A stretch of 64,000 nt of DNA from a virus (IMGVR_UViG_3300033144_005525:95402-159401); one strand, 5' to 3'; positions 16,514 to 49,522 are shown, numbered from the stretch's first letter. A program made the numbers and translations. Notes: generated from the sequence alone by a model not told the origin.

Positions 16514-17635
16514 CTAGAACTGCGAGACGTCCGGGAACTTCAGCCCGTCGTCCACACGGTTGTTCACCGCTCCGAGCTCATCCTCTGCCACCGGCAGCTT
16601 GGCTGCGAAGCCCGTGTCCGTTGCGGTCGGGGTGACCGAACCGGCGTAGAGCTCCAGCTTCCGCACCGAGGCCACGTTGATGATCGAAATGGCGATGTCC
16701 ATCCAGGACTGCCACGTGATCATGTTGGCGACTTTGTCGATGTAGAACTTGGTGTTGTTGAGGATGTAGTTCTTGCCCAGGAACTCCGGGGCCGTGAAGA
16801 CGTAGACATTTCCCGTGCGGAGGATGTCGGTCTTGATGGTCCGGATGAGCTTGCGGCCGAGGAGGACGTTGTACTTGTAGCCGTCGACCATCGTCTCCGA
16901 CTGCATCTTGTCACCCATGTCCTGGAGGGTCCAAGACAGGATGTCGTCGTAGTCTGGCTCGGTCATGAGGAACCGCTCCGAGCGCAGACGGTTGCCGTCT
17001 AGCAGCTTGAAGAGGTTGACCAGGTCCGGCCGCAGGATCGGCTGCACCGTGAAGGTGATGCCACCCAGAGTGAGGGCACCGGTGCCCTTGATGACTGCCG
17101 ACTGCACGACTCCGCCACTGTTGACGTCGTCGGCCCGGAGAGCCGTCGCTGAGCCACCGTTGGCTTCGGTCTGGAGACCCTGACACGCCGACTCGATGTG
17201 GCGTGTGAACTCACGGTCCTTGATCTCCTGCAGATCCTTCACCGAGTTGTCCTCGATGATCTTGGTGATCGGCATCTCGTAGGCGAGGAGCTCCTGCTCC
17301 GTCTTCTCGAACTTCTCCGAGCTGACGGTGTAGAAAGGCACCTCTGCCCTCGGGGCACGGATGAACCGAGCCGTCGGCTGACCACGGAAGGTCAGGGTCA
17401 TCGCACGAGACTGGGGCTCGATGTCGACGATCTTGACCAGGGTGTCGTGGTTCACCGACCGCTGGCAGTCGGCCCGGGTGACCGGGTCGGGCGGGATGAT
17501 CTTGTCCACGTAGCAGACCTCACGGAGGCGGTCACGGATGTAGACGCTGCCCAGGGCAGCGACCTTCTCCTTGCCTTCGGAGGTGTCGAGGTTTTGCGCG
17601 AACATGTCGTTGAGAACTCGTGCCGGAACGCTCAT
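16514..17635 (-). CDS. Major capsid protein (HK97 fold inferred)
   Basis: 373 aa with strong GC3 bias, placed after protease, scaffold-like and decoration genes and followed by a terminator. Confidence 0.8.
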   Translation of the reverse strand: MSVPARVLNDMFAQNLDTSEGKEKVAALGSVYIRDRLREVCYVDKIIPPDPVTRADCQRSVNHDTLVKIVDIEPQSRAMTLTFRGQPTARFIRAPRAEVPFYTVSSEKFEKTEQELLAYEMPITKIIEDNSVKDLQEIKDREFTRHIESACQGLQTEANGGSATALRADDVNSGGVVQSAVIKGTGALTLGGITFTVQPILRPDLVNLFKLLDGNRLRSERFLMTEPDYDDILSWTLQDMGDKMQSETMVDGYKYNVLLGRKLIRTIKTDILRTGNVYVFTAPEFLGKNYILNNTKFYIDKVANMITWQSWMDIAISIINVASVRKLELYAGSVTPTATDTGFAAKLPVAEDELGAVNNRVDDGLKFPDVSQF

Positions 17636-21852: not shown

Positions 21853-23976
21853 CTAAGCAGCCGCTAGTACGCCCGATTGGGCCAGAGCCTCCGAATGGAA
21901 GTCCCTGTCTTCGTAGTGAGCCCCAACCAGGTATGCCAACGACTCGGGGCCCAAGACGTTGACACTAGCAGACTTCGTGATCCCGCCGGCGAAGGCCTGC
22001 ACCATGCTCTCACCCGCCGTAGCGAGCATGAGCTGGGGATCAGAAGCCATGGAACGTTCTACAACGCTGGCCTTCTTTACGAGAGAGCGTCGATAGCCAT
22101 TGTACAGCTCCGCCACCTTCTCCAAGAACTTGTCCCCACGAATCGGAGTGGGGGAACTCATACGAACATTCAACTGAGACACCAACGAAGCCCTCTTCTC
22201 CAGAGCGGGGGCTGCGATGGAACGACCGGGAGCAAACTGCATCAACGACGATTTCAATTCTGGATCCACCGAGGCTTCGTTGATTTCGATGGAGTCGTCA
22301 ATCTCTGTGGAGGGAGCAAAGACCTGATTACGGCCCTCGAGATCCTCTGCTAGAGCTTCCTCGCCGATCTTGGTGAGCACCATGTGCTGGAACTCTTGGG
22401 GCTTGAGAACGATCCCCAACATAGCTGCTGTCGAAGTGGAGACGTCGAACGCATGTTTCGACATCTGCTTGAGGACATTCTTTGGAAGAGTCCCCTCTGC
22501 TCTTTCCAACTTGGGCAACATAGCTTTCCGGAACGGTCCGGCTGGTATACTTTTTATAATCTCGCCAGCCTTCGAGTGGGAAGCGCTTTTTTCTCCGGGG
22601 GTTACCAAGAACGCCTCGGCCAGTTCGTCAAAGCTGCCACAGGAGTTGTCTGAGGCCTTCTTCGAGTGACCCTGCAGATACGAGGAGAAGGCCTGTGGAG
22701 TCATCTCCGTGGCTCCGCCAAACAGCTTGGCAGGGATATGTTTCAGGTACATAAGGGTCGCCGCCTTCTTCGACGAGAAACCCAGCATGACCTTGTCTTC
22801 GTCGTGCGTTCCGTCCTTCTTCAGCTGTCGGACGACGTAAACATCGGATCCTGCCTGCGGCTCTACGGCCAGGTAGATATCTACGGTCTCCCCGTCTTTG
22901 CCCAGGGTCTTGGGGATGTAACCGTAAGCGGCCTTCATCTCCCTCGACCACTTCTTGCCTTTGTCGTCCGTACCGGAACGTGTGTCGCCGGCGTCGACCT
23001 CGATCTTCAGAGTATGCCCATCGAAGGTGGTTTGGCGTTTAACTGCCTTACCAGCGGTCTTTTCGTAGATGGGGAAGCTCTCTGTGGCCACCTTCTGCAT
23101 GGCCCACTGATCCGCTAGATCCTGAGCTCTGAGCTCGGTGGGAGCAGAGAAGGCCTCCCCCACTTCTGCACTGGAGCGGGAAATTGAACAGAACTCCCCA
23201 AGACACTGCTGATTCTCCACACTGGCCAGCTTGGCAAGCATTTTGGCCGACTTGTCGGCGCCGATGAAGACGAAGCTGATGTCGAAGAACCTGGGGGTAT
23301 CGTTGCGGACAGCTACCTTGCGACCGTCCGGCAAGATCTTGTTCATCAGGAGCTTGGCGTCGTCGCAGTAGTCCTTGCGGGTCTTCGACTTGTGCCCACA
23401 TATCGTACATATGTCGTGGGGGACTTTGCAGCCCATCGACACATCCGGGAACTCCCCGTTGTCGATCCGGTTGATGACGTCTTCTGCCAGCCACTTCTTG
23501 CACAGAGCTCGGTCCAGATAGACCACAAGCTCGACGCGGTGCATCATGGGGTTCCACACCGCAATCTTCACCTCGCCGAAGGCCCTGCTCGGGTCCTTGT
23601 TGACGTGGTGCTTGTACGGGTAGGCGTTCATGAAGGAGGGAAAACCGTACTTCCAGGTTTTTCCCACCTTCTTCATCTCCTCCGGGGACATCTCATTCCA
23701 GTTGGGAGGAGAGTGAATCAGAGCGGCCTCAGGGAACAGGTCTCCGTTGACGTTGGATCCCCAGTACTCCCCGGCCCCCAAAGCGCTCACCAGGATGTAG
23801 ACGCCCTTGTCGGTAGGCTTCAGATCCTTGATGTAGCGTCGTACAGCTGGGTGCAGCTTTGAAGGCTTGGATGCAGCTGTCTTCTCAAGACCGTCCAAGA
23901 AGTCATGGCCCCAAAGGGGTTGGCAGAAGACATTCCCTTCGTCGTCCTGCCCTCTGAATTGGATCTGCTTGATCAC
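21853..23976 (-). CDS. Prohead maturation protease with an inserted inorganic-pyrophosphatase-like domain
   Basis: YKHHVNKD, DVSMGC...CTICGH and FFDISFVFIGAD resemble HK97/assemblin-type protease motifs; YGYIPKTLGKDGETVDIY...DEDKVMLG is PPase-like. Confidence 0.75.
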   Translation of the reverse strand: MIKQIQFRGQDDEGNVFCQPLWGHDFLDGLEKTAASKPSKLHPAVRRYIKDLKPTDKGVYILVSALGAGEYWGSNVNGDLFPEAALIHSPPNWNEMSPEEMKKVGKTWKYGFPSFMNAYPYKHHVNKDPSRAFGEVKIAVWNPMMHRVELVVYLDRALCKKWLAEDVINRIDNGEFPDVSMGCKVPHDICTICGHKSKTRKDYCDDAKLLMNKILPDGRKVAVRNDTPRFFDISFVFIGADKSAKMLAKLASVENQQCLGEFCSISRSSAEVGEAFSAPTELRAQDLADQWAMQKVATESFPIYEKTAGKAVKRQTTFDGHTLKIEVDAGDTRSGTDDKGKKWSREMKAAYGYIPKTLGKDGETVDIYLAVEPQAGSDVYVVRQLKKDGTHDEDKVMLGFSSKKAATLMYLKHIPAKLFGGATEMTPQAFSSYLQGHSKKASDNSCGSFDELAEAFLVTPGEKSASHSKAGEIIKSIPAGPFRKAMLPKLERAEGTLPKNVLKQMSKHAFDVSTSTAAMLGIVLKPQEFQHMVLTKIGEEALAEDLEGRNQVFAPSTEIDDSIEINEASVDPELKSSLMQFAPGRSIAAPALEKRASLVSQLNVRMSSPTPIRGDKFLEKVAELYNGYRRSLVKKASVVERSMASDPQLMLATAGESMVQAFAGGITKSASVNVLGPESLAYLVGAHYEDRDFHSEALAQSGVLAAA

Positions 23977-27185: not shown

Positions 27186-27219
27186 GTGGGAGGGGCGTAA
27201 AGCACGCTCCCCCTACTTT
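27186..27219 (+). terminator. Probable intrinsic terminator
   Basis: gggaggggcgt-aaagc-acgctccccct then actttt, between convergent genes. Confidence 0.55.
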
Positions 27220-29039
27220 TAGCTCTCTGGATGATGTTGCCTGGTATCTCTCATAGGAGCTATGACGTCTGGCCTCGGGTGTTTAATCATCGAAGCCAGG
27301 AAGCAAAGAAGAACGGAGTGGAAAGAGTCATCCGTCGTCATAGGACTCTTCTTGTAGACGTTCTCTCTGCGTTGCTCAGAATACTCAGAGAAGATGTTGA
27401 GGAAATCGGCTGCGAAGGGGGCCTGGAATTCTTCCCAGCATGGGAATCGGAACACGTTACGACGCTTGATAGCGTTGAAGATGTCCGACATGACCTCTGT
27501 GCGGTTAACCAGGAACCTCTTGAGCCCATCTTCCCATTTCACCTTAGCGTTCGGCGTCGAGTACTGATACTTGGCAATGCGTTGCCATCCGAACTTGCTG
27601 ATGAGCTTGTCGTTGGGCCAGAAGCCTCCGCCGTAATCGCACCCAGCTAGCTGCACCTTCCATCGCTCTATCTCTCTACTTACCAACTCGATCATTATCT
27701 TGGGTTCAGACTCTCGACCCTCGAAACGGTTGATGTAGACGATGGTGAACCGTCCCTGCAGGTAGCACCCAAGAGACAGAATTGTGTACGTGTTCTCTCC
27801 AGTTCCCCAATCGATTCCAGCGTAGATAGGAGTAGAGGCACCGAGATGCCTGATCATCTTCTCCTGGAAAGCTGCAGTGAGGTGAATGTTGGGATCACAG
27901 TTGTCCATGATATCTCGACGTGTAAGCGGTCGAGTACCTGTGTCGTAAGACAACCCCAAAACCTCGTTGTAGAACTTGGGACGTGAGTAAGTTTTCTGCT
28001 TCTGTAGGATCTCATCCCAACCAACCCAAGGGACCATGATCTGAGGGATACGGAAACCCTCATAGGGTTTGGGGATGTACTTGATGACGTCTGGATTCAA
28101 AGAGACCCACTGCGAATCGTCATCCATAGAAGCGATAGGCTTCTCGCAACGATCACATACCAAACCCTCTTTTCCGATGTGGTCCTCAGAGAGAATGTTC
28201 CAGTAAGCCTTGCTGAGGTGGGAACCTGTCTGGATAGCATGCCTATGGCAGGGAACTGCCCACTCGTTCTGGGTCGAATACTCAGTCCAGTAATACTCGA
28301 TTGGATTGTCCAGAGACTTCGGAGTCCCTGAGTACATGAAGATCTTAAAGTGCGAGTGCGATGCACACTCTTCGATAATCGGGATGTTGTCTGTGAGAAT
28401 GTCTTGGAGCTCATCAATACAGATGACGTCGGCAGGGATCCCACGAACACGATCAGCAGACATGTAGCAGTAGCGCAGAGTGATCTGACTACGGTTGATG
28501 AACTTCTTGAGGAAGACGTTGTCGGAGAGCTTGGTAGTGGTCCAGGACTTGAGGTACTCCGAGGTCTCGATGGGCTCCTTGAGCCTGTCCTGAGAGAAAA
28601 CCTTGGTCTGCTGATTGGTGGGAGAGACGTACAGAGCGTTGAGCGCCTGAATGATGCAGGCGTAGGACAACAACTTGTTTCCCAGGAGAGTGGACTTCTC
28701 TACCTGACGTCCGCATTTCAGCAAGGTTCTCTTACTGGACGTATCATATATCTGCCGAAGATACCGGCGACCCTCGAAGCTGAACTGCTCGTAGGTTTGC
28801 TTCAGCTTGTTCGGTAAACGAACAGCGAATTCCACGAAGCTAGAGGGGGATACATCTAGAAGCTCTCCCTGCCTCCGAACTACGTAGTCAACGTCGAACG
28901 ACTCTTCTGGCTCATGTTCGAAGTCCCACTCCTCTGGAAAGTCTGATCCAGAGAAGATGCCGTCGATACCATGTTGGACGATGGGTATCTGCTGCTCTCG
29001 CTCGAAGGCAGCTACGTCCTCAATGATTTCAAAGGCCAT
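27219..29039 (-). CDS. terL: Terminase large subunit (GpA-like)
   Basis: Walker A-like KCGRQVEKST, Walker B ICIDELQD, SGTP coupling motif, and nuclease motifs GIDWG and DDSFHS. Confidence 0.9.
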   Translation of the reverse strand: MAFEIIEDVAAFEREQQIPIVQHGIDGIFSGSDFPEEWDFEHEPEESFDVDYVVRRQGELLDVSPSSFVEFAVRLPNKLKQTYEQFSFEGRRYLRQIYDTSSKRTLLKCGRQVEKSTLLGNKLLSYACIIQALNALYVSPTNQQTKVFSQDRLKEPIETSEYLKSWTTTKLSDNVFLKKFINRSQITLRYCYMSADRVRGIPADVICIDELQDILTDNIPIIEECASHSHFKIFMYSGTPKSLDNPIEYYWTEYSTQNEWAVPCHRHAIQTGSHLSKAYWNILSEDHIGKEGLVCDRCEKPIASMDDDSQWVSLNPDVIKYIPKPYEGFRIPQIMVPWVGWDEILQKQKTYSRPKFYNEVLGLSYDTGTRPLTRRDIMDNCDPNIHLTAAFQEKMIRHLGASTPIYAGIDWGTGENTYTILSLGCYLQGRFTIVYINRFEGRESEPKIMIELVSREIERWKVQLAGCDYGGGFWPNDKLISKFGWQRIAKYQYSTPNAKVKWEDGLKRFLVNRTEVMSDIFNAIKRRNVFRFPCWEEFQAPFAADFLNIFSEYSEQRRENVYKKSPMTTDDSFHSVLLCFLASMIKHPRPDVIAPMRDTRQHHPES

Positions 29040-29075
29040 TGACCACACCTTAACAGAGACCTAGCCTTACAGGGG

Positions 29076-35857: not shown

Positions 35858-37840
35858 CTACAGTAGCTGCTTCTGCTGAAGACCGCGGAGACCTTGGATG
35901 ACCTCTTCCAGGTTCTTCATCGAACGCTCGATAGCTCCCTCATCGACCTGAGACATACCCATGCGAGCAGCCATGAGCATCTCAGCCAACCTCTGGACAG
36001 TCTCATCCATCTGTGGGAGGTAGCTGGCGAAGATGGCGATGTTCTCCGGGTTGAGGAAGTTCATCGCCAAGATGCGATCTGCTGTCTCTGAGTCCTCGAG
36101 TGCAGCTGCTTCCTTGACGAGATCTCGACGAAGGTCGTAGGGGAACTTCCCAAGCAGGACGGAAGCCTCCTTGATGGCCTCCTGGTGCACATGCTCGAGC
36201 GGTGTGATGGTGAGGAGACCCTCAGCGGTCGTCCTACCCTGTCTCTGAGCCTCTGCCAGCTTCTCACGGGCTTGGAACTGGTTGAGACCTGCAGTCACCA
36301 GCAGGAACTCTGCAGCCTGTTTGTCCAGCCACTGGACTTGAGCCAGCTTGCTGAACGGAAGACCGCTGAGGTGGAACTCATCCTTCCCGGTCGAGCGAAT
36401 CCAACCGGTGGTAGAGAATGCTCGAGCTTCCTTGACCTGCTCGGCGGCAGAGGGCGTCTTGACGACATGAACAGCCTCACCCAGAGGAGTGAACTTCATC
36501 GTGTCGGGGATCGCGTACGTGCCTTCACCAGTAGCTTCGATGGTGTTCAGTCCTTGGGTGACCATCAGAGTGATGTCGTTGCCGAAGGCATCCTGAACAA
36601 TGAACCCAGGATTCCCCTGCTCGTCCTGAGTCTGGTTCTGCACGGTCACAGGAGGCAAAGCACAGACACTGCCGTCCGGCTTGATGTAGAAGAAGGCCCC
36701 ATCCCCTTGAGGAGGGGCCTCAGGGATACTGGCGGCGTCGTCGCCCACCCTAACCCCTACAATCTCATCCTGCAGGCTGTAGCTGCTCTCTCCGTCCGTG
36801 AACAGGAACAGAGGGAGCTTGTCCATGTCGAAGTCCATGACCGGAATGACCCAACCGGTCTTGTCTTCTCCAGTCTCCTCGATCTGCACCTGATACTGAC
36901 CGAAGTCTCCGACGATGGCAGGGGTCGGGTCATCGAGAGAAGGCTTAGCCTCCTCAGTCCCCACCGTCATGGAGTCTCCGGGCTGCATCTGCTGGACAGA
37001 ATCCGTGCCCGCCATCTGCTGGGCTTCTTGTGGATTCGCAGAGGCTTCTTGCGGGGAGAATGCACCCGCATTGGCCCACTTGATCTTGAAGTTGCCGTCT
37101 GCCTGCTTGATGAACTGAACCACCGTGGGCTGGATGGATTGGACCAGAACGCCAGCCGTCTTCTGAACGGAGGTTCGAGGCGTCGACGTCACGATGTGGG
37201 CCATCTTGTGGAAGTTTGGATTGACCTGTACTGCCACAAGAAGTTGCTGGTCCTTGGCGATCTTCTCCACCAGAGCAACTGCATCCTCATCAGAGATGGT
37301 GGGTGCGATTGCCTCCATCAGACTGGCGAACTTGCCAAATCCGGCTCCTCCGGCCGCGGCCCCAGTTGTCACGCCAGATCCGTACCCGTAGTTGGTTCGG
37401 ATTGGTGGGTGTAGCTGGTCGACCATGCCCTGATCGACAGGCTTGCGGGTTGATGGCTCGAAGGTTCGACCGTCGAAGAGAGCCTCACTGACACGCTGCT
37501 CACTCATCGGGAAGGCCTTGTCTTCGAACAGGAAGATGTCGGCCGGCGCCATGAGGCGGTCCTTCACGATGATGGGAATGATGACCTTCGGGCCTTCAGC
37601 AGAGGGCTGATCTGTAGGTGTGGTCACCTCGGCACTACCAAAGGCATACCCACGCTCTGGATTCACTCTCTGGAAGATCACGTTCACCGTGTAGTTGGAG
37701 AGAAACGGCAGGAACTTGTAGATCTCTGAACTGACCTCTTTCTGCCAGTTGTCTACGTTGTCCGACAGTTTGATGGGCATAGCCATCTTCTCGAAGGAGA
37801 TATCGGTAGCTTGCTGATCGAGAAACAGTGGAGTTGTCAT
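35858..37840 (-). CDS. Large acidic virion-module protein with about 12 K-x-A motifs
   Basis: 660 aa; EKMA, GKFA, EKIA, QKTA, VKEA, SKLA, EKLA, IKEA and others. Confidence 0.7.
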   Translation of the reverse strand: MTTPLFLDQQATDISFEKMAMPIKLSDNVDNWQKEVSSEIYKFLPFLSNYTVNVIFQRVNPERGYAFGSAEVTTPTDQPSAEGPKVIIPIIVKDRLMAPADIFLFEDKAFPMSEQRVSEALFDGRTFEPSTRKPVDQGMVDQLHPPIRTNYGYGSGVTTGAAAGGAGFGKFASLMEAIAPTISDEDAVALVEKIAKDQQLLVAVQVNPNFHKMAHIVTSTPRTSVQKTAGVLVQSIQPTVVQFIKQADGNFKIKWANAGAFSPQEASANPQEAQQMAGTDSVQQMQPGDSMTVGTEEAKPSLDDPTPAIVGDFGQYQVQIEETGEDKTGWVIPVMDFDMDKLPLFLFTDGESSYSLQDEIVGVRVGDDAASIPEAPPQGDGAFFYIKPDGSVCALPPVTVQNQTQDEQGNPGFIVQDAFGNDITLMVTQGLNTIEATGEGTYAIPDTMKFTPLGEAVHVVKTPSAAEQVKEARAFSTTGWIRSTGKDEFHLSGLPFSKLAQVQWLDKQAAEFLLVTAGLNQFQAREKLAEAQRQGRTTAEGLLTITPLEHVHQEAIKEASVLLGKFPYDLRRDLVKEAAALEDSETADRILAMNFLNPENIAIFASYLPQMDETVQRLAEMLMAARMGMSQVDEGAIERSMKNLEEVIQGLRGLQQKQLL

Positions 37841-38949: not shown

Positions 38950-41900
38950 CTAGTACAGATGCGTCTTCTTGGGGGTTCCCTCCCCGAACTCCGCTCCGTA
39001 GGCATAAGCCGGGATTGGGTTGTTTCCGTGTAGGTTGGTTTTCCAACCCTTGGATGCACCCTCCATGAGGGTTTCCTTCAGCTTACGGAAATTGAGTCTG
39101 GCCATCCAATCCTCTTGCTGATCAAGAGCTCCCTGAGACAACCCCTTGATGACCGGTCTGTGTGTCACTGGGGCGCTACGGCTTCCTGCTTTTTTGTTCT
39201 CTTCTTCGATGACAGAACGAAGAACTATATCCCCACTGAAATAATCTGAGTCTCCCGGATCCTTCACCTGAGTTAGATTGGTCAAAGAACGAACGACCAT
39301 TTCTATGTTTCGTCGCTTGACCCGCTCATCTTTGTAGATCCCATCGTACAGCTCCTTGGTGAGGTAGTTCTGCACTGTTGGGATATCGGTGAGGGGAAGA
39401 AGCTCTCTTGGGTTGATTGGACCGTCCGTAAGGGGGGAACCCTTCTTCATGCTGGATCCAACCTGAAGAGGTTTTCCATCCCTCAACAGTTTCCTCTGCG
39501 ATGGAGCGTAGTGTTTCTCTCCTCCGATGTAGACGTTCCAGCCCTGCGTGTCCTTGTCTCGTTCGATCTTCTGGACCTTCCCACCCACTCTTGAAAGCGT
39601 TGCGGATCCAGGTAGCTTCTTTGGGGGATTCAAGAGCTGCTTCAGGCGACCGATTCTACTGACCGCACCCGCACCTCTGGAGCCTGCGACTCCTCCTGTG
39701 TGGAAGCTGTCCATTGCTAGCTGCATGGCAGGTTCACCTAGAGCGTGACCTGCGATGACACCGATGTTGGTACCCACACTGTGGTCTTCACCATTCTCAT
39801 TCAGACCAAAGCACTTGGAGCATATACCCCTACCGTGAGAGCACTTGAGTGGGCTACGTACAACAACCTTCCCAACTCCATTCTTCTTCAACTGAGACAG
39901 AAGATGAGGAGTAACCAAAGAGCCCTCTTCGTGCAGCCTTCCTCCCGCTTTAACCTTCTTGGCCAGATACCTACCGTGGACATCCTCTTCGTGGATTCCC
40001 ATGGAGATACCATCACCCACCTTGCAATCCTTGGACACAATCATCTCTGGGATGACTGTGTTGACGATCTCCTTGGTCAACATACCGGGCTCAGACGTTC
40101 CTTCTGCCCTTTGCAGAGTACCCATCCGAGCTCCGTGTAGGGCTGTCCAATAATCTCCGACATCCAATCCCTCGGAGTAAGACTTCCTCACAGGGGTCGG
40201 GAGAGTCCTTCCGGTGGCATCCTGCATGAGCATGGGCGCAATGTTCATCTGTCGGAACTGGGACCAGTTACCTCGAGTACCCGAGTCCACCATAGTGAAA
40301 ATGTTATTCCCACTGGCCTCTATCCGGGGCTTGAGCTTCTTCTTCATATCGTCGGTGGCTTTGGTGTAGTTAGCCACCAGCTTTATGTCCTTGTCCTCTT
40401 GACTGAGCTTCCCTGCCATTATTTTGGCAGCAACTACATCTGCCTTGGCCAAAATCTCTTCTCGGACAGCTTTGTCTTCACCCAGACCGAGATCGGAGAG
40501 ACCTATGGAGAATCCGAACTCGTAGCTATGTTGGTTCCCTAGGTTCTTCAGACGGTCAACTGTATTGGCGTAGTTGCGTGGATCATCTCTGGCAATTTCC
40601 GAGAGGATGTCATGAACACCGACCTTGTTCTTGTCTTTCGAGTCGGAGAACTTGTTGAGGACGAACCTTGGGTTGTGTAGGAGATCTTTGTTGTCTCGGA
40701 ATCTCTTAGGGAGCTGATGAGCCAACATCAGGCGACCTACAGTGGTCTTCTTCCCATTTACTGTAACCACGTCCTGCGCAGTGACGATCCCTCTGTCACA
40801 AGCCTTCTTCGCATCAGCGTAGGTAGAGAACTTCTTCCCTACGTCTTTGCCCCACTTGGACAGGAGGTGGATACCCAACAGAGACTCTTGCTCTGGGGCA
40901 TACATGACTCCCCCATTGGTAGAGCTGAACAGGTTGTTTGAGGGGAACATCTTACGAGACTCTCGAACTGCCTTATCCGTTAATGGGACAAAGGCGCTCA
41001 TCGTGTCTCCGTCGAAGTCTGCGTTGTAACCTGCAGTGACCAGAGGATGGATCCGAATAGCCTTTCCATCCACCAACTGCGGCTTGAACGCCATGAAGTT
41101 GAACTTGTGTAGGGCAGGATCCCTCTTCAGAAGAACAGGGCGGTCCTCTATGATCTTTTCGAGAGCTGCCCAAGCCACAGCTGTCTCTTCCTTGATGTCC
41201 TTATGAGCTTGTAGTGGGCTGCGTCCTGTTCTCTTGAGCTCTCGAATGACGAATGGCTTGTACAGCTCCATAGCTGCACTGCGAGGTATACCGACACGGT
41301 CCAGGTGCATCTCCGGCTCAGGGATGATGGTGGAGCGCATCGACAGCTCTTGCCGTCTCTTCATCAACTTGCGTTGGAAGAACCCCTGCTTCGGAGAAGG
41401 ACCCGCTACCGTATCCAGGATCCCTTTCAGTTGTCTGTTAGATTCGTACTGAGGTACTCCACCAGTACCCATTGTGGCTTTTAGTAGATCGTACAGCTCC
41501 TCTCGTAGAGGCTGATCTGCTTCCGGTAGGTCAAGGATCTTGTCCTTCAACTTGTTGTTGACGATCCCAAGATCCTTGTACAGGTGGTTGATGTCATCGA
41601 AGCGCAACGATCCATCAGGCATAGGAACGATTGGACGAAATACCGGAGGAATCACCGGTACATTGTTCATCACGTAGGCTTCGCTGGGAGACAGCTTCAG
41701 TTCCTTCAAGGCCCGGAGGTACTTGGCCTTCCTGTTGGCGTGGTTGAGCTTGGCCTTCCTGAGGTTGGGGAGCTCGGCCACTGTCTTCTTGAGCTCGGCA
41801 TCTACATCGACTTGATCGAGAAGGTGTCGGATGGCTTCCCCTCCGATCTTCCCATCGATGTCCTTCTTACCCTTCACGATGTCTTCGAACTCTGGGTACT

Positions 41901-44900
41901 TCAACCCACTCAACACCACGGCGGGTCCAGGTTTCTGCGGTGTGCCTACGAACACAGGGTTTGGCATCGGCTCTGCCAGAGCTATGTGAGACCAGTTGAG
42001 TCCTTTGCCAGGTTCGTTAGGACTAGGTAGACCTCCAGTGATCTCTGGATCAAATAATCCCTTCTCGAGCTCCTTGGCATCCTTTCCACGAAGCACACGA
42101 CCAGCATCTTTGATCTCTCCATTCGAGAGATTCAAGACCCCTTTGTCTGTGAGAGGGACAAGCTGCAGCTCATTTCCCTCCTTCTTAGTGTCGATGCCTA
42201 ACCCCTTCAGATAAGCCTCAAACTTCTTGTAGGCAAAAGTAGGGCGTGGCGCAGGAATTGGCTGCCCCATCTGCACACGATGCCAGAAGTCTACGTGCGC
42301 TTGCGGATTCATGTTGTCGTCTACCTGACGATCCGCCTTGTACGTGGCCATCTCCTTTAGGTTCTCACGAGCTCCATGAGCCAACAGACTGTAGAACTCC
42401 AACTGTCCGATTCCCTGCCCCGGATGCTCTGCCCCCGTACCCTTAGGAGCACCGTCGATGGAGTAGTTGGGTCCATGACTTCGGACAGTCAACTTCTTAT
42501 CCACCTGATGCTTGAGTTTCATAATGTACTGGTCCCCCGTCAGTACATTTCCAATCCTCTTCTTGGTCTCTGGATCAAACAGCTCTTCTTGATCCGATAG
42601 CCCATGATTAGCCAAATCCTTCTTCACACCCTCGGTGTAGTCGATGTTGGCCCCACCAAAGTTGTTCACCAAGTAAGGACGACCTGTCTTCTTGGCTATT
42701 TTGCTGGAGGCTGTCTCCAACATTTGACCCAAGTTGATGCGACTGGGCACACCAGACGGATTCATCAGCACTTCTACATGCTCTCCGTCAGGACTCCCCT
42801 TACGTGGCATCTCTGCGTTGGGAATTATCTTGGTGATAATGGCCTTGTTTCCGTGGCGACCAACAATCTTGTCACCCACCTCGGCAGGCTCTTCTGTGCG
42901 GATGTGAACTACAGCACCCTTCCCATTCGGGATCTTATGTACCTTGACCACCTCACCAGGATTCTGAGACTCCCACTTGGAGCTTCTATCGGCGTACTCG
43001 AACAGCTTCCTGTCCAGTCTAGAGGCCATACGAGAGACAACGCCGAGGTTCTCCCTCTTCCCGACGGCAGCCACCAAGATGTCCCCAGTGTCCACTTTCT
43101 GCCCTACACGAATGACCCCATCGTCATCCAGTTTATCCAACTGCTCTCGAGTCATTTGCTTCGAAGTAGTGGAAGCGTATGCCTGGAACTTCTTCTTGTT
43201 CATGAAGTCTTTGGAAGGGTCAATCTCCACACTCTTCCGATAGACATGCTCTGAAGTAAGTTTGTCGGCAGCTGAATCAGAAATGACGATGCCGTCCTCG
43301 AAGTTGTAACCCTTGTAAGGCAGGTAACTAACCCGCAGGTTTGTTCCCAGCGCTAGTCCACCATCCCTGGTGAAGTTCGTGTCGGCCAGGACCTGCCCTT
43401 TCTTTACCTCAGCACCGACCTCTACTACGGGCTCTGAGTTCATGAAGGACTTTGCGTCATTCAGAGGGAAGTGATTGTAGAGCTGTACCTCGTGCTTCTT
43501 TCTATCCTTCCCCTTGATGATAATCGAGTCCGGATACTCGTTGTCGGTCTGATCAGAACGGATCTTCAAGACCTTTCCGTCAACAGGAGAGGAGTGAGAG
43601 AACGGACCACCAATGATCTTTTCCCAGCTATCCTTTCCTCCACGTACCTGGACAAGTGGAAGCTCTCTATCCCTCAGACCCACTGCCTGGTTGGCTTGGC
43701 GAGAGGCCGTCATCGTCCTGTTGCCCTGGTTGTTCTGAAGGAACGGAATCAGGTTGGTGGCTTCATCGAACAACTGATGAGGAGATACAAACAAGTAGCG
43801 AGCCTTCTTGAAAGGCTGCTTGATGATGTCCCCTGTCTTGGGGTCCTTCATCTTCACTGTGGGGGATATAGGCTTGGGGCCTTTTCCATCCTCCCATGTG
43901 ACTTGATCAGGAAGTAGGACGTACTCCGAATGGAGCTCCGCTGGAGTGACTCCGTTCCTACCCTTCCTGAATTTCTTTTCCTTCAGGTCGTAGACCAGTG
44001 CCTTGACGTCTTCCCCATCCTTGACGACACCCATAGGCAAGTTGAGGCTGATGCCTGTTCTCTTGCTCTCCGGTGTGTGGATAGGATCCAAGAAGCCCAT
44101 ATGGCTGGGGTTGATGAGTTTCATAGAGCGGGACAAAGTCCTCTCGCTCTTGATCCCTCCCTCTTCTCCCCCAAGGATGGTAGTAGCTCGATGGTTGGAG
44201 AGCATCTCCAGAGGATTGACCTGCTCCGGATTCTCTGACAGAGAGGATCTGGTGAACACTTGATCGACGTGCCTACCGAACAGGTCTCCCGATACGACTT
44301 CTCGTACCTTGTCCTTCCTGTTGATGTTGTTACTGATCTTCCTCTTGATCTCCCTCTGAGTAACGGCTTTGCCGATCCTCTCCAACAGGAAGTCGTCTAC
44401 ACTGGTGAGCTTTTTGAACACCAGAGAGTCTCGATCATCTGGTGGAGCTTCACCTCGAGCAACTTCAAGAACTCTCCTGGACGCTTGCAGCAGTGCATCA
44501 CCAGTCACCGTCTTGTAGGGCTTACCAAGAGTACGTTGGGTAGTCTCTGGCAGTAGCTCGGTGTTACCGAACTCTTCTACTACAGCACTGGCGATATCGT
44601 CGTACGTGTCACCCTTGGCCTTCACACCTCTTTGGCTGATTTTGCTGTAGAGCTGCTTGATGTTTCCTTCCGTCTTGTCTGTGACATTGGCCTTGTAGAT
44701 GTCTGGTCCCCAGACCTTCTTCATCTCTTCGTCCTGGACACCCAAGGTCTTCAAGATGGAGTAGAGAGGTATGTTCTGGGTCCCCCATCTCATCTTGAAC
44801 GCTTTGGTCTTGGGGCTGAATGGGACCTTCAGCCTGGACTCTCGAGCGAAGGGCTTGGACAGTGCGAACTCTGTCTCTAGATCTCCATTCGCCTTGATCT

Positions 44901-45264
44901 GAGAGTACACACCAGGACGGAGTCTCCAGAGGTTCCCTACTTGCCTTTCATTGCCTCCGACGATGTAGCTGTATCGGTCGGTCGGTCTCGGTAAGGTAAA
45001 CAGTTTTACCTTAGAGCGATCGACAACCTTGCTGGTCTTCTTATCTACGAGGCTGATATCCCCATACACACCAGCTCCCCAAGTTCTATTGGACAGCTTG
45101 GCCTTTTCTTGGCTTCGAATGTCACCGGATTCAGCAGATCGCTGATCTACGATAACCTCGTTTAGAACCAGTTTGCGGGTCTGTCCATCGACCGGAAAGC
45201 TAGCCTTGACAGACTTGACCGCGCTGCGCTGTAAATCTTTCCAAGTATCGGCTGGTGTTGTCAC
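38950..45264 (-). CDS. rpoBC: Single-chain DNA-directed RNA polymerase, fused beta and beta' subunits
   Basis: Beta motifs GYNFEDG, GDKIVGRHGNK, NPSGVPSRINLGQ and KLKHQVDKK are followed in the same frame by beta' motifs LLKRDPALH, catalytic NADFDGD (41005-41025), bridge helix HGARMG and trigger loop GEPAMQL...FHTGG. Confidence 0.95.
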   Translation of the reverse strand: MTTPADTWKDLQRSAVKSVKASFPVDGQTRKLVLNEVIVDQRSAESGDIRSQEKAKLSNRTWGAGVYGDISLVDKKTSKVVDRSKVKLFTLPRPTDRYSYIVGGNERQVGNLWRLRPGVYSQIKANGDLETEFALSKPFARESRLKVPFSPKTKAFKMRWGTQNIPLYSILKTLGVQDEEMKKVWGPDIYKANVTDKTEGNIKQLYSKISQRGVKAKGDTYDDIASAVVEEFGNTELLPETTQRTLGKPYKTVTGDALLQASRRVLEVARGEAPPDDRDSLVFKKLTSVDDFLLERIGKAVTQREIKRKISNNINRKDKVREVVSGDLFGRHVDQVFTRSSLSENPEQVNPLEMLSNHRATTILGGEEGGIKSERTLSRSMKLINPSHMGFLDPIHTPESKRTGISLNLPMGVVKDGEDVKALVYDLKEKKFRKGRNGVTPAELHSEYVLLPDQVTWEDGKGPKPISPTVKMKDPKTGDIIKQPFKKARYLFVSPHQLFDEATNLIPFLQNNQGNRTMTASRQANQAVGLRDRELPLVQVRGGKDSWEKIIGGPFSHSSPVDGKVLKIRSDQTDNEYPDSIIIKGKDRKKHEVQLYNHFPLNDAKSFMNSEPVVEVGAEVKKGQVLADTNFTRDGGLALGTNLRVSYLPYKGYNFEDGIVISDSAADKLTSEHVYRKSVEIDPSKDFMNKKKFQAYASTTSKQMTREQLDKLDDDGVIRVGQKVDTGDILVAAVGKRENLGVVSRMASRLDRKLFEYADRSSKWESQNPGEVVKVHKIPNGKGAVVHIRTEEPAEVGDKIVGRHGNKAIITKIIPNAEMPRKGSPDGEHVEVLMNPSGVPSRINLGQMLETASSKIAKKTGRPYLVNNFGGANIDYTEGVKKDLANHGLSDQEELFDPETKKRIGNVLTGDQYIMKLKHQVDKKLTVRSHGPNYSIDGAPKGTGAEHPGQGIGQLEFYSLLAHGARENLKEMATYKADRQVDDNMNPQAHVDFWHRVQMGQPIPAPRPTFAYKKFEAYLKGLGIDTKKEGNELQLVPLTDKGVLNLSNGEIKDAGRVLRGKDAKELEKGLFDPEITGGLPSPNEPGKGLNWSHIALAEPMPNPVFVGTPQKPGPAVVLSGLKYPEFEDIVKGKKDIDGKIGGEAIRHLLDQVDVDAELKKTVAELPNLRKAKLNHANRKAKYLRALKELKLSPSEAYVMNNVPVIPPVFRPIVPMPDGSLRFDDINHLYKDLGIVNNKLKDKILDLPEADQPLREELYDLLKATMGTGGVPQYESNRQLKGILDTVAGPSPKQGFFQRKLMKRRQELSMRSTIIPEPEMHLDRVGIPRSAAMELYKPFVIRELKRTGRSPLQAHKDIKEETAVAWAALEKIIEDRPVLLKRDPALHKFNFMAFKPQLVDGKAIRIHPLVTAGYNADFDGDTMSAFVPLTDKAVRESRKMFPSNNLFSSTNGGVMYAPEQESLLGIHLLSKWGKDVGKKFSTYADAKKACDRGIVTAQDVVTVNGKKTTVGRLMLAHQLPKRFRDNKDLLHNPRFVLNKFSDSKDKNKVGVHDILSEIARDDPRNYANTVDRLKNLGNQHSYEFGFSIGLSDLGLGEDKAVREEILAKADVVAAKIMAGKLSQEDKDIKLVANYTKATDDMKKKLKPRIEASGNNIFTMVDSGTRGNWSQFRQMNIAPMLMQDATGRTLPTPVRKSYSEGLDVGDYWTALHGARMGTLQRAEGTSEPGMLTKEIVNTVIPEMIVSKDCKVGDGISMGIHEEDVHGRYLAKKVKAGGRLHEEGSLVTPHLLSQLKKNGVGKVVVRSPLKCSHGRGICSKCFGLNENGEDHSVGTNIGVIAGHALGEPAMQLAMDSFHTGGVAGSRGAGAVSRIGRLKQLLNPPKKLPGSATLSRVGGKVQKIERDKDTQGWNVYIGGEKHYAPSQRKLLRDGKPLQVGSSMKKGSPLTDGPINPRELLPLTDIPTVQNYLTKELYDGIYKDERVKRRNIEMVVRSLTNLTQVKDPGDSDYFSGDIVLRSVIEEENKKAGSRSAPVTHRPVIKGLSQGALDQQEDWMARLNFRKLKETLMEGASKGWKTNLHGNNPIPAYAYGAEFGEGTPKKTHLY

Positions 45265-45388
45265 CTGTGCGCTCCCTCGGGAATTCAGGCCTACGTATGT
45301 TCGTTCGGATCCTATGCACCTGCGCTCAGAGCAGTCCTCGGACCTTAGAACTTCAAATTAGGTTACGCCAAACAAAACTCTGCGTCCA

Positions 45389-45641: not shown

Positions 45642-45740
45642 GTGAGCCTATTCCTGATCGCCGTAGCATTCGCTTTCGTGACCAGGTCTATTCTGATAAT
45701 CGAGTATCATTGGCGGCAGTACTTGCATGGCGGGTGGTGA
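45642..45740 (+). CDS. Possible 32-aa hydrophobic peptide (MSLFLIAVAFAFVTRSILIIEYHWRQYLHGGW)
   Basis: Fills the gap between neighbouring ORFs and has a TM-like segment. Confidence 0.4.
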   Translation: MSLFLIAVAFAFVTRSILIIEYHWRQYLHGGW

Positions 45741-46125
45741 AGTAGGGGCGTTCTGTCCGATTCTGTGGGAAGCAAACCATGGCAGGACAAACAAGGACGG
45801 AACGCCTCTGTTCGAGTCGGGGCTGTTGATTCAGGGTGTCTGCGAGAGTCCTCAAGATTGCGATCGATGCGGACTACTGCAGAACGCCAGGACTCAGATG
45901 TACGGACAAAACGTGACTACCTTGTGGGTCTGTCCGGACTGTTCTGGTGAGTCCATGAAGAGAGCCAAAGCCGACGACGTAGCTGCCAGCCTCCCAGGCT
46001 ATTTCACCGAGGGGTACTGCCAACACCCGCAGTGCGCCAGACCAAACGGTGATCAGTCTGACCAAGAGGCCAGATACTCAATACTCCTGCAGCTACTGAC
46101 TGTTGCAGGAGCCACAATCCCATAG
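45727..46125 (+). CDS. Cys-rich putative Zn-binding protein
   Basis: CESPQDCDRC, CPDC and CQHPQC motifs. Confidence 0.65.
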   Translation: MAGGEVGAFCPILWEANHGRTNKDGTPLFESGLLIQGVCESPQDCDRCGLLQNARTQMYGQNVTTLWVCPDCSGESMKRAKADDVAASLPGYFTEGYCQHPQCARPNGDQSDQEARYSILLQLLTVAGATIP

Positions 46126-46136
46126 GAGGCCATCAA

Positions 46137-46441
46137 TGGTCATTTGCTGTGGGTGCGGAGACCCTTTCGCTGCCGCAGACGGTGGCCTGATGATCAAGCC
46201 AGTTGTTGGCGTGGCCAGTCCCAAGTCAGGCAGATCCATACCTAACGAGAGTACGTTTCCGGACGGATCGAGGGAAAAGTTCCTATGCAACACATGCTGC
46301 TTTTCGGCAACTGAGGTAGGTGTCGTAGTTGGAATCTACGATACCGGCTACGACTTCCCCCACGAAAAGGAGGTGCACCCTGGCGCAGTGTCTGGAGTGT
46401 TCCCAACCTATCAACTTGGGTCAGGAGTTCATAAGAATTGA
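46137..46441 (+). CDS. Small Zn-finger protein
   Basis: AGGAGG RBS before ATG 46137; CCGC...SPKSGR...CNTCC. Confidence 0.6.
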
Positions 46442-46778
46442 AACTGGAGTAGTAGTGGTGTCGAAAAAGTCTGGGCGACCACTACCTCTATCTAATTCTG
46501 GGGAACTGATCCACAACGTTTGTTTCCAATCCTACTTGGTGAATACCAGCAACCAACTGTGGGACCACATCATCACTATCCTGCAACCAAAAGTCAGGAA
46601 AGAAGTTCTTCAAGAGCTTGGGGAAGAATTGAAGCAGGAAGCGTTCGACGAAGCAGTGGAGGAGCTAGGCAGGACATGTGTTGTGTGTAGCGAGGAGATA
46701 GAGTTCATGGCTGAGACGGATCCGACCGAAATCCAGCCTCACCATTCAGCTCTTCCTCCACCACTCTCTCACTACTAG
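46380..46778 (+). CDS. Zn-finger protein paralogous to the upstream gene
   Basis: CLEC...SKKSGR...HNVC plus CVVC; AAGGAGG precedes an in-frame CTG at 46380 (the ORF track start is 46329). Confidence 0.6.
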   Translation: MAQCLECSQPINLGQEFIRIETGVVVVSKKSGRPLPLSNSGELIHNVCFQSYLVNTSNQLWDHIITILQPKVRKEVLQELGEELKQEAFDEAVEELGRTCVVCSEEIEFMAETDPTEIQPHHSALPPPLSHY

Positions 46779-46788
46779 TAGATAGCAA

Positions 46789-46830
46789 AGAGAAAGGCGG
46801 GGGTTCCATACCCCCGCCTCCTCTCTTTTA
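46789..46830. terminator. Bidirectional intrinsic terminator
   Basis: agagaaaggcggggg-ttccata-cccccgcctcctctctttt between convergent genes. Confidence 0.75.
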
Positions 46831-46843
46831 GCTAGTTGCTGCC

Positions 46844-49522
46844 CTACGAACAGCCTGTAGTTGCTCCACAGTTGCTGCACAGAAAACAGGAGCCGGACCT
46901 CTTGGTCAAGCTGCCACAATCTGAGCACGGTGGACCGTCGTAGGCGATCGTCAAATCCACCACCTGGATGGGAGGTTTGACGATAGTTGATCCAGAGGCT
47001 TCCGCTTTCTTCGGCTCCTCTTCCGACAGGTAGCGGAGCTCTATCCACCTAAAGAGATAGTCGATGATGGACTTGGCAATGCTGATTTCATCGTCACCTG
47101 TGAAACCGGCTGGCTCGAAGCTCGTACCCTTGAACTTGTCGCAGAGGAGCTTGACCGGAACACCATGTTGGATCCCGAAGGACACCGACTGGGCGAAGCA
47201 CTCGAGTATTCCTCCCAAGAAACTTCCCTGCTTGGAAATCCGAACGAAGATCTCAGCTAGGGTTCCATCCGGATACTCCCCAGCCGTGATGTATCCCTTG
47301 ACGTTAGCCACTCGGAACTTGTGGGTGACTGAGTTTCTTGTGTTCGGCAGATCTTTGCGCTCTCCCCACTTCCTGATGGAGAACCCATCCTTGTGCTCCA
47401 GCTTGGTAGCAACGGGCTGGGATAGCTTGCACCCACTCCTATAGATGGCAACGCACTTCAGGCCACCCCTCCACGCCTTCATGTAGATGTCTGCTACGTC
47501 TTGAGAGGTAGCATCCTCTGGCATGTTGACGGTCTTGGAGATGCCTCCCGACAAGAAAGGTTGAACGGCCGCCATCATGTCGATATGCCCTTGCGGCTTT
47601 AGAGCATGTGACCCAAGGGACCCAGCGAAGATCTCGTTGTGCTCCTCTTTGAATCCGGGAGCACCGTGAATGTCCCCATTGTTCCTGATGTAGTTCTCGA
47701 TCTCACCGATTTGATCGTAGTCGTAACCCAGGTTGAGTAGGGCAGGACCCACCACGCGGCTAGGCAACATCAAGACACCCTCTCCGACGATCTTCTTGTA
47801 GACCACGACTCCCAACATCGGCTCAATGCCTGTGGTATCGCAGTCCATCAAGAACGAGATGGTTCCCGTCGGAGCTAGCAGAGTAGTTTGTGCGTTTCGG
47901 AACCCCCACATCTTTCCGTTGGAGTAAGCACTGATCCATGCATTCATCGAAGACTTGGCCAGATCGGTCCAAGGTTTATCGATAGGGACCGGAATCTCCC
48001 TGGCGCTTTCCAGATGCCTCTCGATCACCGCCAACATGGGCTCTCGGTTCTTCTCGTATTCCTGGAATGGTCCTTTTGCCATAGCCAGGATCGCCGATTG
48101 GTCGTAAGCCCTGCCGCCCATCAAGGAAGTGATGAGAGCTGCCACGTTCCTACCCTCATCACTGTCGTAGGGTAGACCCCAAAACGTGAGGAGGGCACCG
48201 AGGTTGGCATACCCAAGACCCAACGGTCGGAACTTGTGACTCATCTCCGCAATTTGCGGACTTGGGTAAGAAGCAGCATCGACGATGATCTCTTTAGCTA
48301 TGATGGCAATGTCGATGGCCTGTAGGAAATCATTCACCAGGAACCCATCATGCTTGGCGAACTTCATGAGATTAAGGGATCCCAGGTTGCACGCCGAGTT
48401 GTTCAGGAACAGGTACTCTGAACATGGATTCGTGGCAGTGATCTCCCCACTGTTCGGGCAAGTGTGCATCTCGTTGATGATGGACTTGAACTGCAGTCCA
48501 GGGTCACCACAGAGGTGCGCTGCGTCACTCATCTCTTCGAACATCTCCTTGGCCTGGTAGTGCCGATGATCGGAGCCGTCCGCGTACTTCGTGGTCCACA
48601 CACTGTCGTCCACCACCCCTTGCATGAAATCATCTGATACACGCACGGAGTGATTGGCGTTCTGGTAACCGACCCTGTCGTAGACGTTCCCTCGGATGTT
48701 CCACTCCGCAGAGTACTTCCCAGTCTCGTACAGGGCTTGAGCCTCCCTCTCTGCATCCGCCTTGCAGCCGATGAATCCAGGAAGACCATTCCTCTGGGCG
48801 ATGATGTCTGGATGATCGGCATCGAGAACATTCATCTTCGCGGCACGACGAGTGGTGCCTCCGGATTTGGTGACTCCGGCAAAAGCGTCGTACCCCTTCA
48901 TGAACGACACAGGTCCCGATGCGTAGCCTCCTCCCGATAGTTTTTCCCAGGAACTACGTATGGAGGACAGATTGGCTCCGGTACCGGAACCGCCTTTGAA
49001 CAGCATGACCTCTCGCTTGGCGAGATCCATGATGTCACTCATTGTGTCGTCCACTCCCTGGATGAAGCACGCTGAGCATTGTGGGTCTTCCTTCACCCCT
49101 ACGTTGAACCAAACGGGAGAGTTGAAGGCGTACATCCCATTCACTAGGAGATGCAGGAGTTCCAGATGGAAGATGTTGGAATCTTCCGGGAGGATTACAC
49201 TCTGCCCCACACCTTTTTGAGTGATCCATATGGCCACTCTGTTGAACATCTGCTTGGCCGAGAACTCCTTTACCCCACTGACTACGCGAAAGTATTTCTC
49301 GACAACGATGTTGATCGTGTTGTCGGACCACGTCGATGGCACTTCGACGCCGTCCTGACGGAACTTCTCGACTCCATCCGCACCGATCAATACGGCGTCT
49401 GTAGTCACCCATTCAATGGTGTCGAAAGGGTGAGCACCCTCATCGACGAAGTGGCGCTTCACGCTCAGTGGACGATAGTCGTCCTTGACTGCCGTTGACT
49501 CTGGAACGACGGTAGTCTCCAT
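46844..49522 (-). CDS. nrdJ: Class II (adenosylcobalamin-dependent) ribonucleotide reductase
   Basis: FNSP, QCSACFI, GGTTRRAAKM, TNPCSE, APTGTIS and AIYRSG motifs, a C-terminal TSCPD-like domain and a Zn ribbon. Confidence 0.95.
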   Translation of the reverse strand: METTVVPESTAVKDDYRPLSVKRHFVDEGAHPFDTIEWVTTDAVLIGADGVEKFRQDGVEVPSTWSDNTINIVVEKYFRVVSGVKEFSAKQMFNRVAIWITQKGVGQSVILPEDSNIFHLELLHLLVNGMYAFNSPVWFNVGVKEDPQCSACFIQGVDDTMSDIMDLAKREVMLFKGGSGTGANLSSIRSSWEKLSGGGYASGPVSFMKGYDAFAGVTKSGGTTRRAAKMNVLDADHPDIIAQRNGLPGFIGCKADAEREAQALYETGKYSAEWNIRGNVYDRVGYQNANHSVRVSDDFMQGVVDDSVWTTKYADGSDHRHYQAKEMFEEMSDAAHLCGDPGLQFKSIINEMHTCPNSGEITATNPCSEYLFLNNSACNLGSLNLMKFAKHDGFLVNDFLQAIDIAIIAKEIIVDAASYPSPQIAEMSHKFRPLGLGYANLGALLTFWGLPYDSDEGRNVAALITSLMGGRAYDQSAILAMAKGPFQEYEKNREPMLAVIERHLESAREIPVPIDKPWTDLAKSSMNAWISAYSNGKMWGFRNAQTTLLAPTGTISFLMDCDTTGIEPMLGVVVYKKIVGEGVLMLPSRVVGPALLNLGYDYDQIGEIENYIRNNGDIHGAPGFKEEHNEIFAGSLGSHALKPQGHIDMMAAVQPFLSGGISKTVNMPEDATSQDVADIYMKAWRGGLKCVAIYRSGCKLSQPVATKLEHKDGFSIRKWGERKDLPNTRNSVTHKFRVANVKGYITAGEYPDGTLAEIFVRISKQGSFLGGILECFAQSVSFGIQHGVPVKLLCDKFKGTSFEPAGFTGDDEISIAKSIIDYLFRWIELRYLSEEEPKKAEASGSTIVKPPIQVVDLTIAYDGPPCSDCGSLTKRSGSCFLCSNCGATTGCS

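Follow-up and report, generated by a model that had tools for sequence, protein, structure and literature searches.

A 64,000-nucleotide stretch of DNA from an uncultured phage (IMG/VR record IMGVR_UViG_3300033144_005525, bases 95402-159401; this whole stretch is hereafter called the window, and the full record measures 191,126 bp at an estimated 91% completeness) carries on its minus strand a gene for an RNA polymerase in which relatives of the bacterial beta and beta' subunits are joined in one polypeptide. The gene lies in a series that runs portal protein, ribonucleotide reductase, hairpin, polymerase, a 369-amino-acid (aa) protein, a 660-aa protein, an SNF2-family helicase, a 758-aa protein, and two small genes, with the large terminase further on (Table 1). 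An earlier note, made from the sequence of the window, had described the gene as a streamlined single-chain polymerase at the head of a virion operon and had proposed that the enzyme might be packaged in the virion and independent of alpha.

The polymerase gene and its product

The reading frame is continuous and intein-free, and its start codon lies at the position seen in the polymerase genes of relatives. In Pfam searches, residues 347-983 match Rpb2 domains 3, 6, and 7 and residues 1194-2006 match Rpb1 domains 1-5, all passing their cut-offs, which gives the order beta then beta'; the best match is Rpb2_6 (E 5e-60). Rpb2_6 is matched by this gene alone across the 191-kb record, indicating that the polymerase is single-copy, and the gene and its neighbors are alike in G+C content. 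A phmmer comparison with beta' chains in the PDB reached E 2e-124; on the PDB chains the alignment starts at about residue 150-174. As read from the sequence, a single polypeptide supplies the complete catalytic core of a multisubunit RNA polymerase of the bacterial type.

Both halves were aligned with phage relatives and with the subunits of Escherichia coli and four further bacteria. The closing segment of beta (…LGIDTKKEGNE) directly abuts the first conserved segment of beta' (LQLVPLTDKG…). All features of the catalytic core are present and aligned (the NADFDGD motif, the lysines of GRHGNK, the bridge helix, and the trigger loop), and the predicted active center is intact. Both sigma-docking elements, the clamp helices of beta' and a flap-tip-like helix in beta, are likewise kept according to the alignments.

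The chain is 645 aa shorter than E. coli beta and beta' combined (1342 + 1407). Missing relative to E. coli are beta segments 229-348, 935-1044, and 1128-1181, which are lineage inserts, and beta' segments 67-91 (the zinc ribbon), 147-177, 554-570, 948-1133 (SI3), and 1360-1397 (the C-terminal tail). Measured against a compact Bacillota enzyme, beta' has four losses: besides the zinc ribbon and the C-terminal tail, these are segments of 31 and 12 residues. At the zinc-ribbon site, E. coli beta' 67-91 (with Cys70, Cys72, Cys85, and Cys88) stands opposite a gap between GLFDPEITGG (residues 1069-1078) and WSHIALAEP (1091-1099), as does Bacillota beta' 48-72; the ribbon is also missing in every fused relative examined and in the polymerases of Salmonella phage Arash and Vibrio phage D69, discussed below. 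The second zinc site is kept, its cysteines aligning with E. coli C814, C888, C895, and C898; these four are present in all eight aligned phage sequences and account for four of the five cysteines of the entire polymerase. The earlier note had read a beta and a beta' part in one frame, a junction near nt 42180, a shortening by several hundred residues, a deleted N-terminal zinc-binding domain in beta', and a retained second zinc site, and the alignments bear out each of these readings.

Table 1. Coordinates of the polymerase gene, its elements, and other genes of the phage (positions in the window unless another sequence is named)
Feature	Residues of polymerase	Nucleotides	Strand	Basis or remark
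Single-chain beta-beta' RNA polymerase gene		38950..45264	-	2104 codons, GTG start, intein-free; open reading frame (ORF) list and translation
Ribosome-binding site GAGGGAG		45272..45278	-	7 nt 5' of GTG; read from sequence
Beta module	~1-1031	42172..45264	-	Alignment with beta of E. coli and of four further bacteria
GRHGNK (beta)	802-808	42841-42861	-	Alignment
Flap-tip-like helix (beta)	741-757	42994-43044	-	Alignment
Beta/beta' junction, linker-less	1023-1040	42145-42198	-	Alignments
Beta' module	~1032-2104	38953..42171	-	Alignment; phmmer against PDB
Missing N-terminal zinc ribbon, site of		41968..42060	-	GLFDPEITGG … WSHIALAEP, Cys-free
Clamp helices, coiled coil (beta')	1225-1266	41467-41592	-	Alignment
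NADFDGD (beta')	1414-1420	41005-41025	-	Alignment
Bridge helix (beta')	1710-1735		-	Alignment
Second zinc site, kept	Cys1747, Cys1808, Cys1815, Cys1818	39811..40038	-	Alignment
Trigger loop (beta'), without SI3	1843-1858		-	Alignment
Portal protein, 689 aa		49598..51667	-	30% identical to Arash gp204 "portal protein", E 1e-80
Class II ribonucleotide reductase		46844..49522	-	Pfam Ribonuc_red_lgC, E 6e-115; between portal and polymerase
Bidirectional GC-rich hairpin terminator		46793..46821	.	Terminator scan; 12-pair stem, 8 GC pairs; after reductase gene
Tail central-spike (gpV/VgrG-like) gene, 369 aa		37837..38946	-	Starts 3 nt past polymerase stop
660-aa protein		35858..37840	-	L007 and L008 orthologues at same position after spike gene
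SNF2-family helicase, 487 aa		34373..35836	-	Pfam SNF2-rel_dom and Helicase_C; 34% identical to Arash gp217, E 1e-76
Multidomain protein, 758 aa		32096..34372	-	Pfam Peptidase_C39_2 and InPase; polyvalent/ejected-protein type
Large terminase		27219..29048	-	PHROG 675, E 1.5e-66; Pfam GpA_ATPase
Capsid candidate		16514-17635	-	No Pfam match; weak phrog_2522 only
286-aa sigma-70-family protein		G000:C1 9199-10056	-	Outside window; Sigma70_r3 over cut-off
155-aa sigma-like protein		G000:C1 35503-35970 (L005:1168-1635)	+	Outside window; sigma-70 region 4 only

The fused family and its descent

Relatives were collected by a word-indexed search and by another, exhaustive search without profiles, in which only the beta' half was compared with 50%-identity cluster representatives. 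The word-indexed search returned more than 120 clusters (90% level) at 45-73% identity, nearly all of them about 2100 aa long, and many of the homologues lie on phage contigs of 165-220 kb. The best 150 representatives found with the beta' half are all fused, as are the clusters of the word-indexed search. Among the 150, identity goes down to 38% (E 1e-186), and the beta' part starts near residue 1000 of a longer protein wherever an N-terminal half is present; the shorter entries are fragments. The fused single-chain design is widespread in metagenomes, and because the fusion is conserved across clusters, the single chain is under selection and is no assembly artefact. Many fused homologues are 2450-4739 aa long (P0008, P0011, P0020, P0054, P0066-P0068, and others) and contain one to several inteins or homing endonucleases (PF14528, PF05204, PF14890), of which the window copy has none. 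Three others (P0163, P0188, and P0189) are uninterrupted and have an extra 370-410 or so N-terminal residues ahead of beta, so that their beta' part starts at 1378-1416.

In a collection of 50,697 phage records, no cultured phage has a fully fused polymerase; at the nucleotide level cultured phages gave no match, and the exact window protein is absent from the contig index. The best protein matches in these records are Vibrio phages D69, D148, and D181 and Salmonella phage Arash (gp206 + gp216; OQ632216), at 30-32% identity. Their polymerases resemble the window chain in that beta is joined to beta' without a linker, the zinc ribbon is lacking, and the second zinc site is kept, but their beta' is cut at a point corresponding to residue 1494-1532 or so of the window protein, where the window chain is continuous. 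The first gene (1525-1527 aa) encodes all of beta plus the front of beta', the second (606-609 aa) encodes the rest of beta', and the two are separated by other genes. Arash and D69 also share with the window phage a polymerase gene that closely follows the portal gene, orthologues of the SNF2 helicase and of the sigma, a genome of about 180-190 kb, and membership of one beta' clade. In Arash the helicase gene (gp217) follows the gene for the C-terminal part of beta'. The paper on Arash calls gp206 and gp216 beta and beta' and does not describe a beta-beta' fusion (PMC10585845). In both Arash and D69 the catalytic loop reads AADYDGD instead of NADFDGD and the trigger loop is divergent; the three aspartates are kept.

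Our beta' tree (48 rows, LG+G4, quick search, 1027 columns kept) comprised 25 bacteria from 15 phyla, 19 fused proteins, and four other phage sequences. All 25 bacterial sequences fall on one side of a branch with a Shimodaira-Hasegawa-like approximate likelihood ratio test value of 100, and the 19 fused proteins form one clade with Arash and D69 (support 96), at the base of which the split pair is unresolved. Over the catalytic domain, bacterial sequences reach at best 37-44% identity, and no phylum stands out. A phylogeny had been suggested by the earlier note as a check on whether the polymerase nests within a bacterial clade; it does not, and since the family branches outside the sampled bacteria, it is, by this tree, no recent capture of bacterial genes. 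With an unrooted tree that leaves out archaeal sequences and those of the phage lineage mReC, an ancient split looks the same as fast evolution after an old capture.

Two further phages were considered in this context. Cobetia phage Carin-5, which has a very divergent operon of sigma, beta (1083 aa), and beta' (927 aa), was tried as a possible mReC-like reference for the tree; it aligned poorly and gave a very long branch, and no inference was drawn from it. Rhizobium phage RHph_TM30 encodes a bacterial-like beta' of 1127 aa, which falls on the bacterial side of the tree.

Sigma factors and neighboring genes

Models for alpha (PF01000, PF01193, and PF03118) and omega (PF01192) gave no match at E <= 1 anywhere in the 191-kb record; each of these models matches 13-14 of 14 control genomes. 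The earlier note had recognized no alpha, omega, or sigma gene in the window. For alpha and omega this extends to the whole record; for sigma it holds inside the window but not outside it, where two sigma-like proteins are encoded. Alpha-independence of the single-chain polymerase is plausible, as far as gene content can tell.

The larger of the two sigma-like proteins (286 aa) exceeds the cut-off for Sigma70_r3 (26.0 versus 25.3 bits), stays under that for region 2 (14.3 bits), and has weak whole-protein matches to RpoD, RpoS, and SigF models (E 1e-5). It is the orthologue of the virion sigma of Arash, gp10 (28% identity, E 1e-19), and all 115 of its homologues come from this phage lineage; at least nine of them are on contigs equal in size to contigs that bear the polymerase (for example 209,907, 181,247, 185,667, 182,991, and 199,380 bp). 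A complex prediction for this protein with polymerase residues 640-1340 scored 0.72, with 0.01 for the best of three controls; because bacterial holoenzymes have been solved, the score may reflect likeness to those structures and is not proof of binding. Of 80 solved complexes, 58 reach that mark, as do 2 of 110 mismatched pairs; these counts are only rough because our own alignments were used. Across the sigma-polymerase runs at least 79% of contacts agree and the predicted local distance difference test value (pLDDT) of the partner is at least 74. On the polymerase, the contacts map to the clamp helices (about residues 1218-1260) and the flap tip (about 740-759), so the structure prediction that the earlier note had suggested for the sigma interface yields a canonical, though predicted, docking on both elements. 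The enzyme is very probably not sigma-less, and we infer that the 286-aa sigma serves the phage enzyme rather than that of the host. The second protein (155 aa) has a C-terminal region 4 helix-turn-helix and a middle part rich in Cys and His, and could be a second, minimal specificity factor.

The gene that follows the polymerase had been called spike-like in the earlier note, and its predicted fold agrees. The Phage_base_V match of the 369-aa protein has E 0.006, and its orthologue in L007 scores 26.9 bits against a cut-off of 23.8. An AlphaFold model built with 45 homologues (pLDDT 76.6) is matched by Foldseek, at E 4e-6 to 1e-3, to central spikes of contractile injection systems and of phages: the Algoriphagus extracellular contractile injection system, phi812, VgrG, phi92 gp138, the R2 pyocin spike, and P2 gpV. 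These fold matches make a contractile tail like that of Arash probable. Of the 176 homologues of the protein, many share contigs with polymerase homologues. The 660-aa protein has no match in Pfam, PHROG, or cultured phages, and tblastn with the 369-aa and 660-aa proteins against the 50,697 phage records likewise returned nothing.

PHROG matches of the 758-aa protein are to minor head, virion structural, and DarB-like proteins, and its InPase domain occurs in 473 phage records, often labelled structural. Another large protein with an InPase domain, typical of polyvalent, virion-borne phage proteins, is encoded at 21853-23976 on the minus strand.

Upstream, the portal protein is also 30% identical to the product of the gene directly before the D69 polymerase and 53-65% identical to that of the gene upstream of the polymerase in two relatives, L007 and L008. 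The order portal, polymerase, spike, terminase recurs in these two (48% and 62% identity), and the succession of portal and polymerase is kept from Arash and D69, at 30% identity, to L007 and L008. The class II (B12-type) reductase is present at the same place in L008 and not in L007, the 48% relative, so it looks like an insertion into a morphogenesis block. Because a strong hairpin follows the reductase gene, the polymerase block would start its own unit; small opposite-strand ORFs occupy 45727-46778. The block is tight and co-directional, has the spike as its second gene, and lies between the portal and the large terminase, which suits the position at the head of a virion operon that the earlier note had assigned to the polymerase, although the block also holds the helicase and a probable ejected effector protein.

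Proposed role and comparison with known systems

The best explanation, to which we give a probability of about 0.6, is a self-sufficient single-chain core that works with a phage sigma, travels in the virion, and on ejection transcribes the early genes. The direct fusion of the beta C-terminus to the beta' N-terminus would be a covalent join that replaces the role of the alpha dimer in assembly, and core and phage sigma would make up a two-protein holoenzyme. Core, sigma, and SNF2 helicase would be made late, together with the virion proteins, packed in the head, and ejected with the DNA, after which the enzyme would transcribe the early genes of the phage independently of the host polymerase. 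Since the record contains only this polymerase gene, newly made enzyme would probably serve later stages too, perhaps with the 155-aa sigma-like protein. Mass spectrometry of purified Arash particles gave 3516 spectra for gp206, the highest count of any protein (the major capsid protein gave 1333), and 1210 for gp216, the fifth-highest; the helicase gp217 and the sigma gp10 (100% coverage) were also detected (PMC10585845). By analogy, virions of the window phage probably contain the polymerase and deliver it to begin phage transcription. A capsid-targeting peptide was considered at the short N-terminus, where the alignment with beta begins directly; this counts neither for nor against packaging.

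Several observations weigh against this explanation. Fully fused members are known here from genes alone, and no targeting or propeptide segment is recognizable at the N-terminus of the polymerase. The record is about 91% complete, so a gene may be missing from it, and host alpha and omega could still bind the single chain. No repeated phage-specific promoter motif was found, either as 6-8-mers enriched in 98 upstream non-coding regions or as 12-mers (up to two mismatches) common to 104 non-coding intervals of the whole record; the words recovered were those of the tRNA T-arm and of low complexity, and a sigma-70 consensus scan around the polymerase gene gave fewer sites than shuffled sequence. 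With the motif searches empty, no promoter can be named in this genome. The tree is unrooted and site-homogeneous and has no archaeal or mReC sequences. The Arash preparation contained 116 of about 270 proteins, including ribonucleotide reductases and ligases, and its authors allow for carry-over of abundant proteins (PMC10585845). Phage sigma factors, finally, often serve the host polymerase.

Sigmas directed to the host enzyme, such as T4 gp55 and SPO1 gp28, are common among phages, and one alternative builds on them: the polymerase would be made after infection and read middle or late genes only, with the host RNA polymerase, perhaps redirected by the phage sigmas, reading the early ones, and its place among structural genes would reflect timing and not packaging. 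No packaging signal or propeptide is seen, as this alternative would have it, and the many metabolic enzymes in the Arash spectra make carry-over possible (PMC10585845). Yet an enzyme made only with the late virion genes would come too late unless it were packed for the next cycle, the Arash polymerase is detected above the major capsid protein and its sigma is fully covered, and the linkage of portal and polymerase is kept across relatives only 30% identical; we consider a polymerase that stays out of the virion unlikely. It is more doubtful still that the single chain joins the alpha dimer of the host, and perhaps omega, with fusion merely streamlining the genome. The enzyme has a body of bacterial type (TIGR02386 rpoC, 569 bits; PRK00405 rpoB, 361 bits), and an engineered E. 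coli beta-beta' fusion is reported to function together with alpha (Severinov and colleagues, 1997). A virion-delivered enzyme, however, would need to find host alpha after ejection, and the C-terminal tail of beta' (E. coli 1360-1397), which holds omega in bacteria, is missing. Polymerases of the phiKZ and AR9 type function without alpha (PMC7598289, PMC8287921). Moreover, identity to any bacterium is only about 30-40% and the hosts span Salmonella, Vibrio, and soil bacteria, so host-specific alpha contacts are unlikely across the family.

Least credible is a recent capture of bacterial rpoB and rpoC fused by intergenic loss, or an assembly or annotation artefact. The two genes are adjacent in bacteria and natural fusions of them exist; the models of these fusions (PRK09603 and PRK14844) are the best-scoring ones for the window protein. 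The scores nevertheless fall well short of the curated cut-offs, with 572 and 511 bits where 5372 and 4632 are required, so the protein is no member of the bacterial fusions. For rpoC (TIGR02386) the score is 569 against 963.5, and for rpoB (PRK00405 / TIGR02013) the values are 361 against 896 and 326 against 801. Together with the placement outside all 25 sampled bacteria, the conservation of the fusion in at least 150 clusters at 50% identity, and a G+C content matching that of the neighboring genes, this led us to reject such a capture as highly improbable. In the other direction, the packaged two-protein enzyme could be taken as the simplest cellular-type machine known, with a one-chain core that has no alpha, omega, or N-terminal zinc ribbon and a small phage sigma that sets promoter specificity, packed with a helicase, ejected to drive all phage transcription without the host, and split off before the bacterial phyla diverged; this fuller claim is tentative.

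If the favored explanation is correct, the enzyme would offer a minimal two-protein model of bacterial-type transcription initiation, a natural test of the alpha dimer as a mere assembly scaffold, and another way for large phages to escape dependence on the host polymerase and the defenses and drugs aimed at it. The cultured cousins Arash (Salmonella) and D69, D148, and D181 (Vibrio) make the questions of packaging and sigma use testable now, and the polymerase could serve as a marker gene that helps to classify this large group of phages.

The role proposed here, packaging and ejection for the transcription of early genes, is shared with the N4 vRNAP, gp66 of the crAss-like phage phi14:2, and gp96 of Thermus phage P23-45 (PMC10770324). 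Their folds are unrelated or distant, T7-like in N4 and a QDE-1-like two-barrel type in gp66 and gp96, and none has a bacterial-type beta-beta' with sigma-docking elements (PMC10770324). The bacterial RpoB-RpoC fusions of the Helicobacter and Wolbachia type (PRK09603, PRK14844) resemble the window chain in joining the beta C-terminus to the beta' N-terminus; they differ in length (about 2840-2890 aa) and in having the zinc ribbon, alpha, and omega. Literature searches returned no description of a fused phage form, and a 2026 review of jumbo phages does not mention one.

Closer in kind are the polymerases of the phiKZ and AR9 type, phage-encoded beta/beta' relatives with no alpha or omega; virions contain one set of them, which serves early transcription, and their genes are linked to an SNF2-type helicase (PMC7598289, PMC7824862). 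In these phages beta and beta' each come in two or three pieces, there are two paralogous sets, and no sigma is used (PMC7598289, PMC7824862), whereas the window enzyme is unsplit, single-copy, and accompanied by a sigma-70-type partner; its PHROG scores are E 1e-21 or worse to phiKZ/AR9 families versus 1e-136 and 1e-77 to two unnamed PHROGs. The earlier note had also pointed to a published lineage of tailed phages with deep-branching polymerases. That lineage is mReC (multisubunit-RNAP-encoding Caudovirales; Weinheimer and Aylward, 2020), whose bacterial-like beta and beta' branch outside the cellular clades (PMC7481178), but the window phage lies outside its published description, having a single ORF and a capsid candidate not of the T4 type. 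In the mReC entries examined, the two subunits are separate proteins, beta of 999-1377 aa (1563 in one case) and beta' of 902-1038 aa, and none of about 2100 aa is listed (PMC7481178). The mReC capsid is of the T4 gp23 type (PF07068 / VOG11186) and the terminase is PF03237, whereas the capsid candidate of the window phage has no PF07068 match and its terminase is of the GpA_ATPase type; the phage lies beyond mReC on these features, and it is set apart by the published description of the lineage and not by placement in a tree. Phage relatives of cellular RNA polymerase known so far are either sigma-free and in many pieces (phiKZ, AR9) or encoded by two genes and known from metagenomes only (mReC). 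Beside them, the polymerase of the window appears to be a fully fused and sigma-compatible version with no alpha, very common among large phages from the environment.

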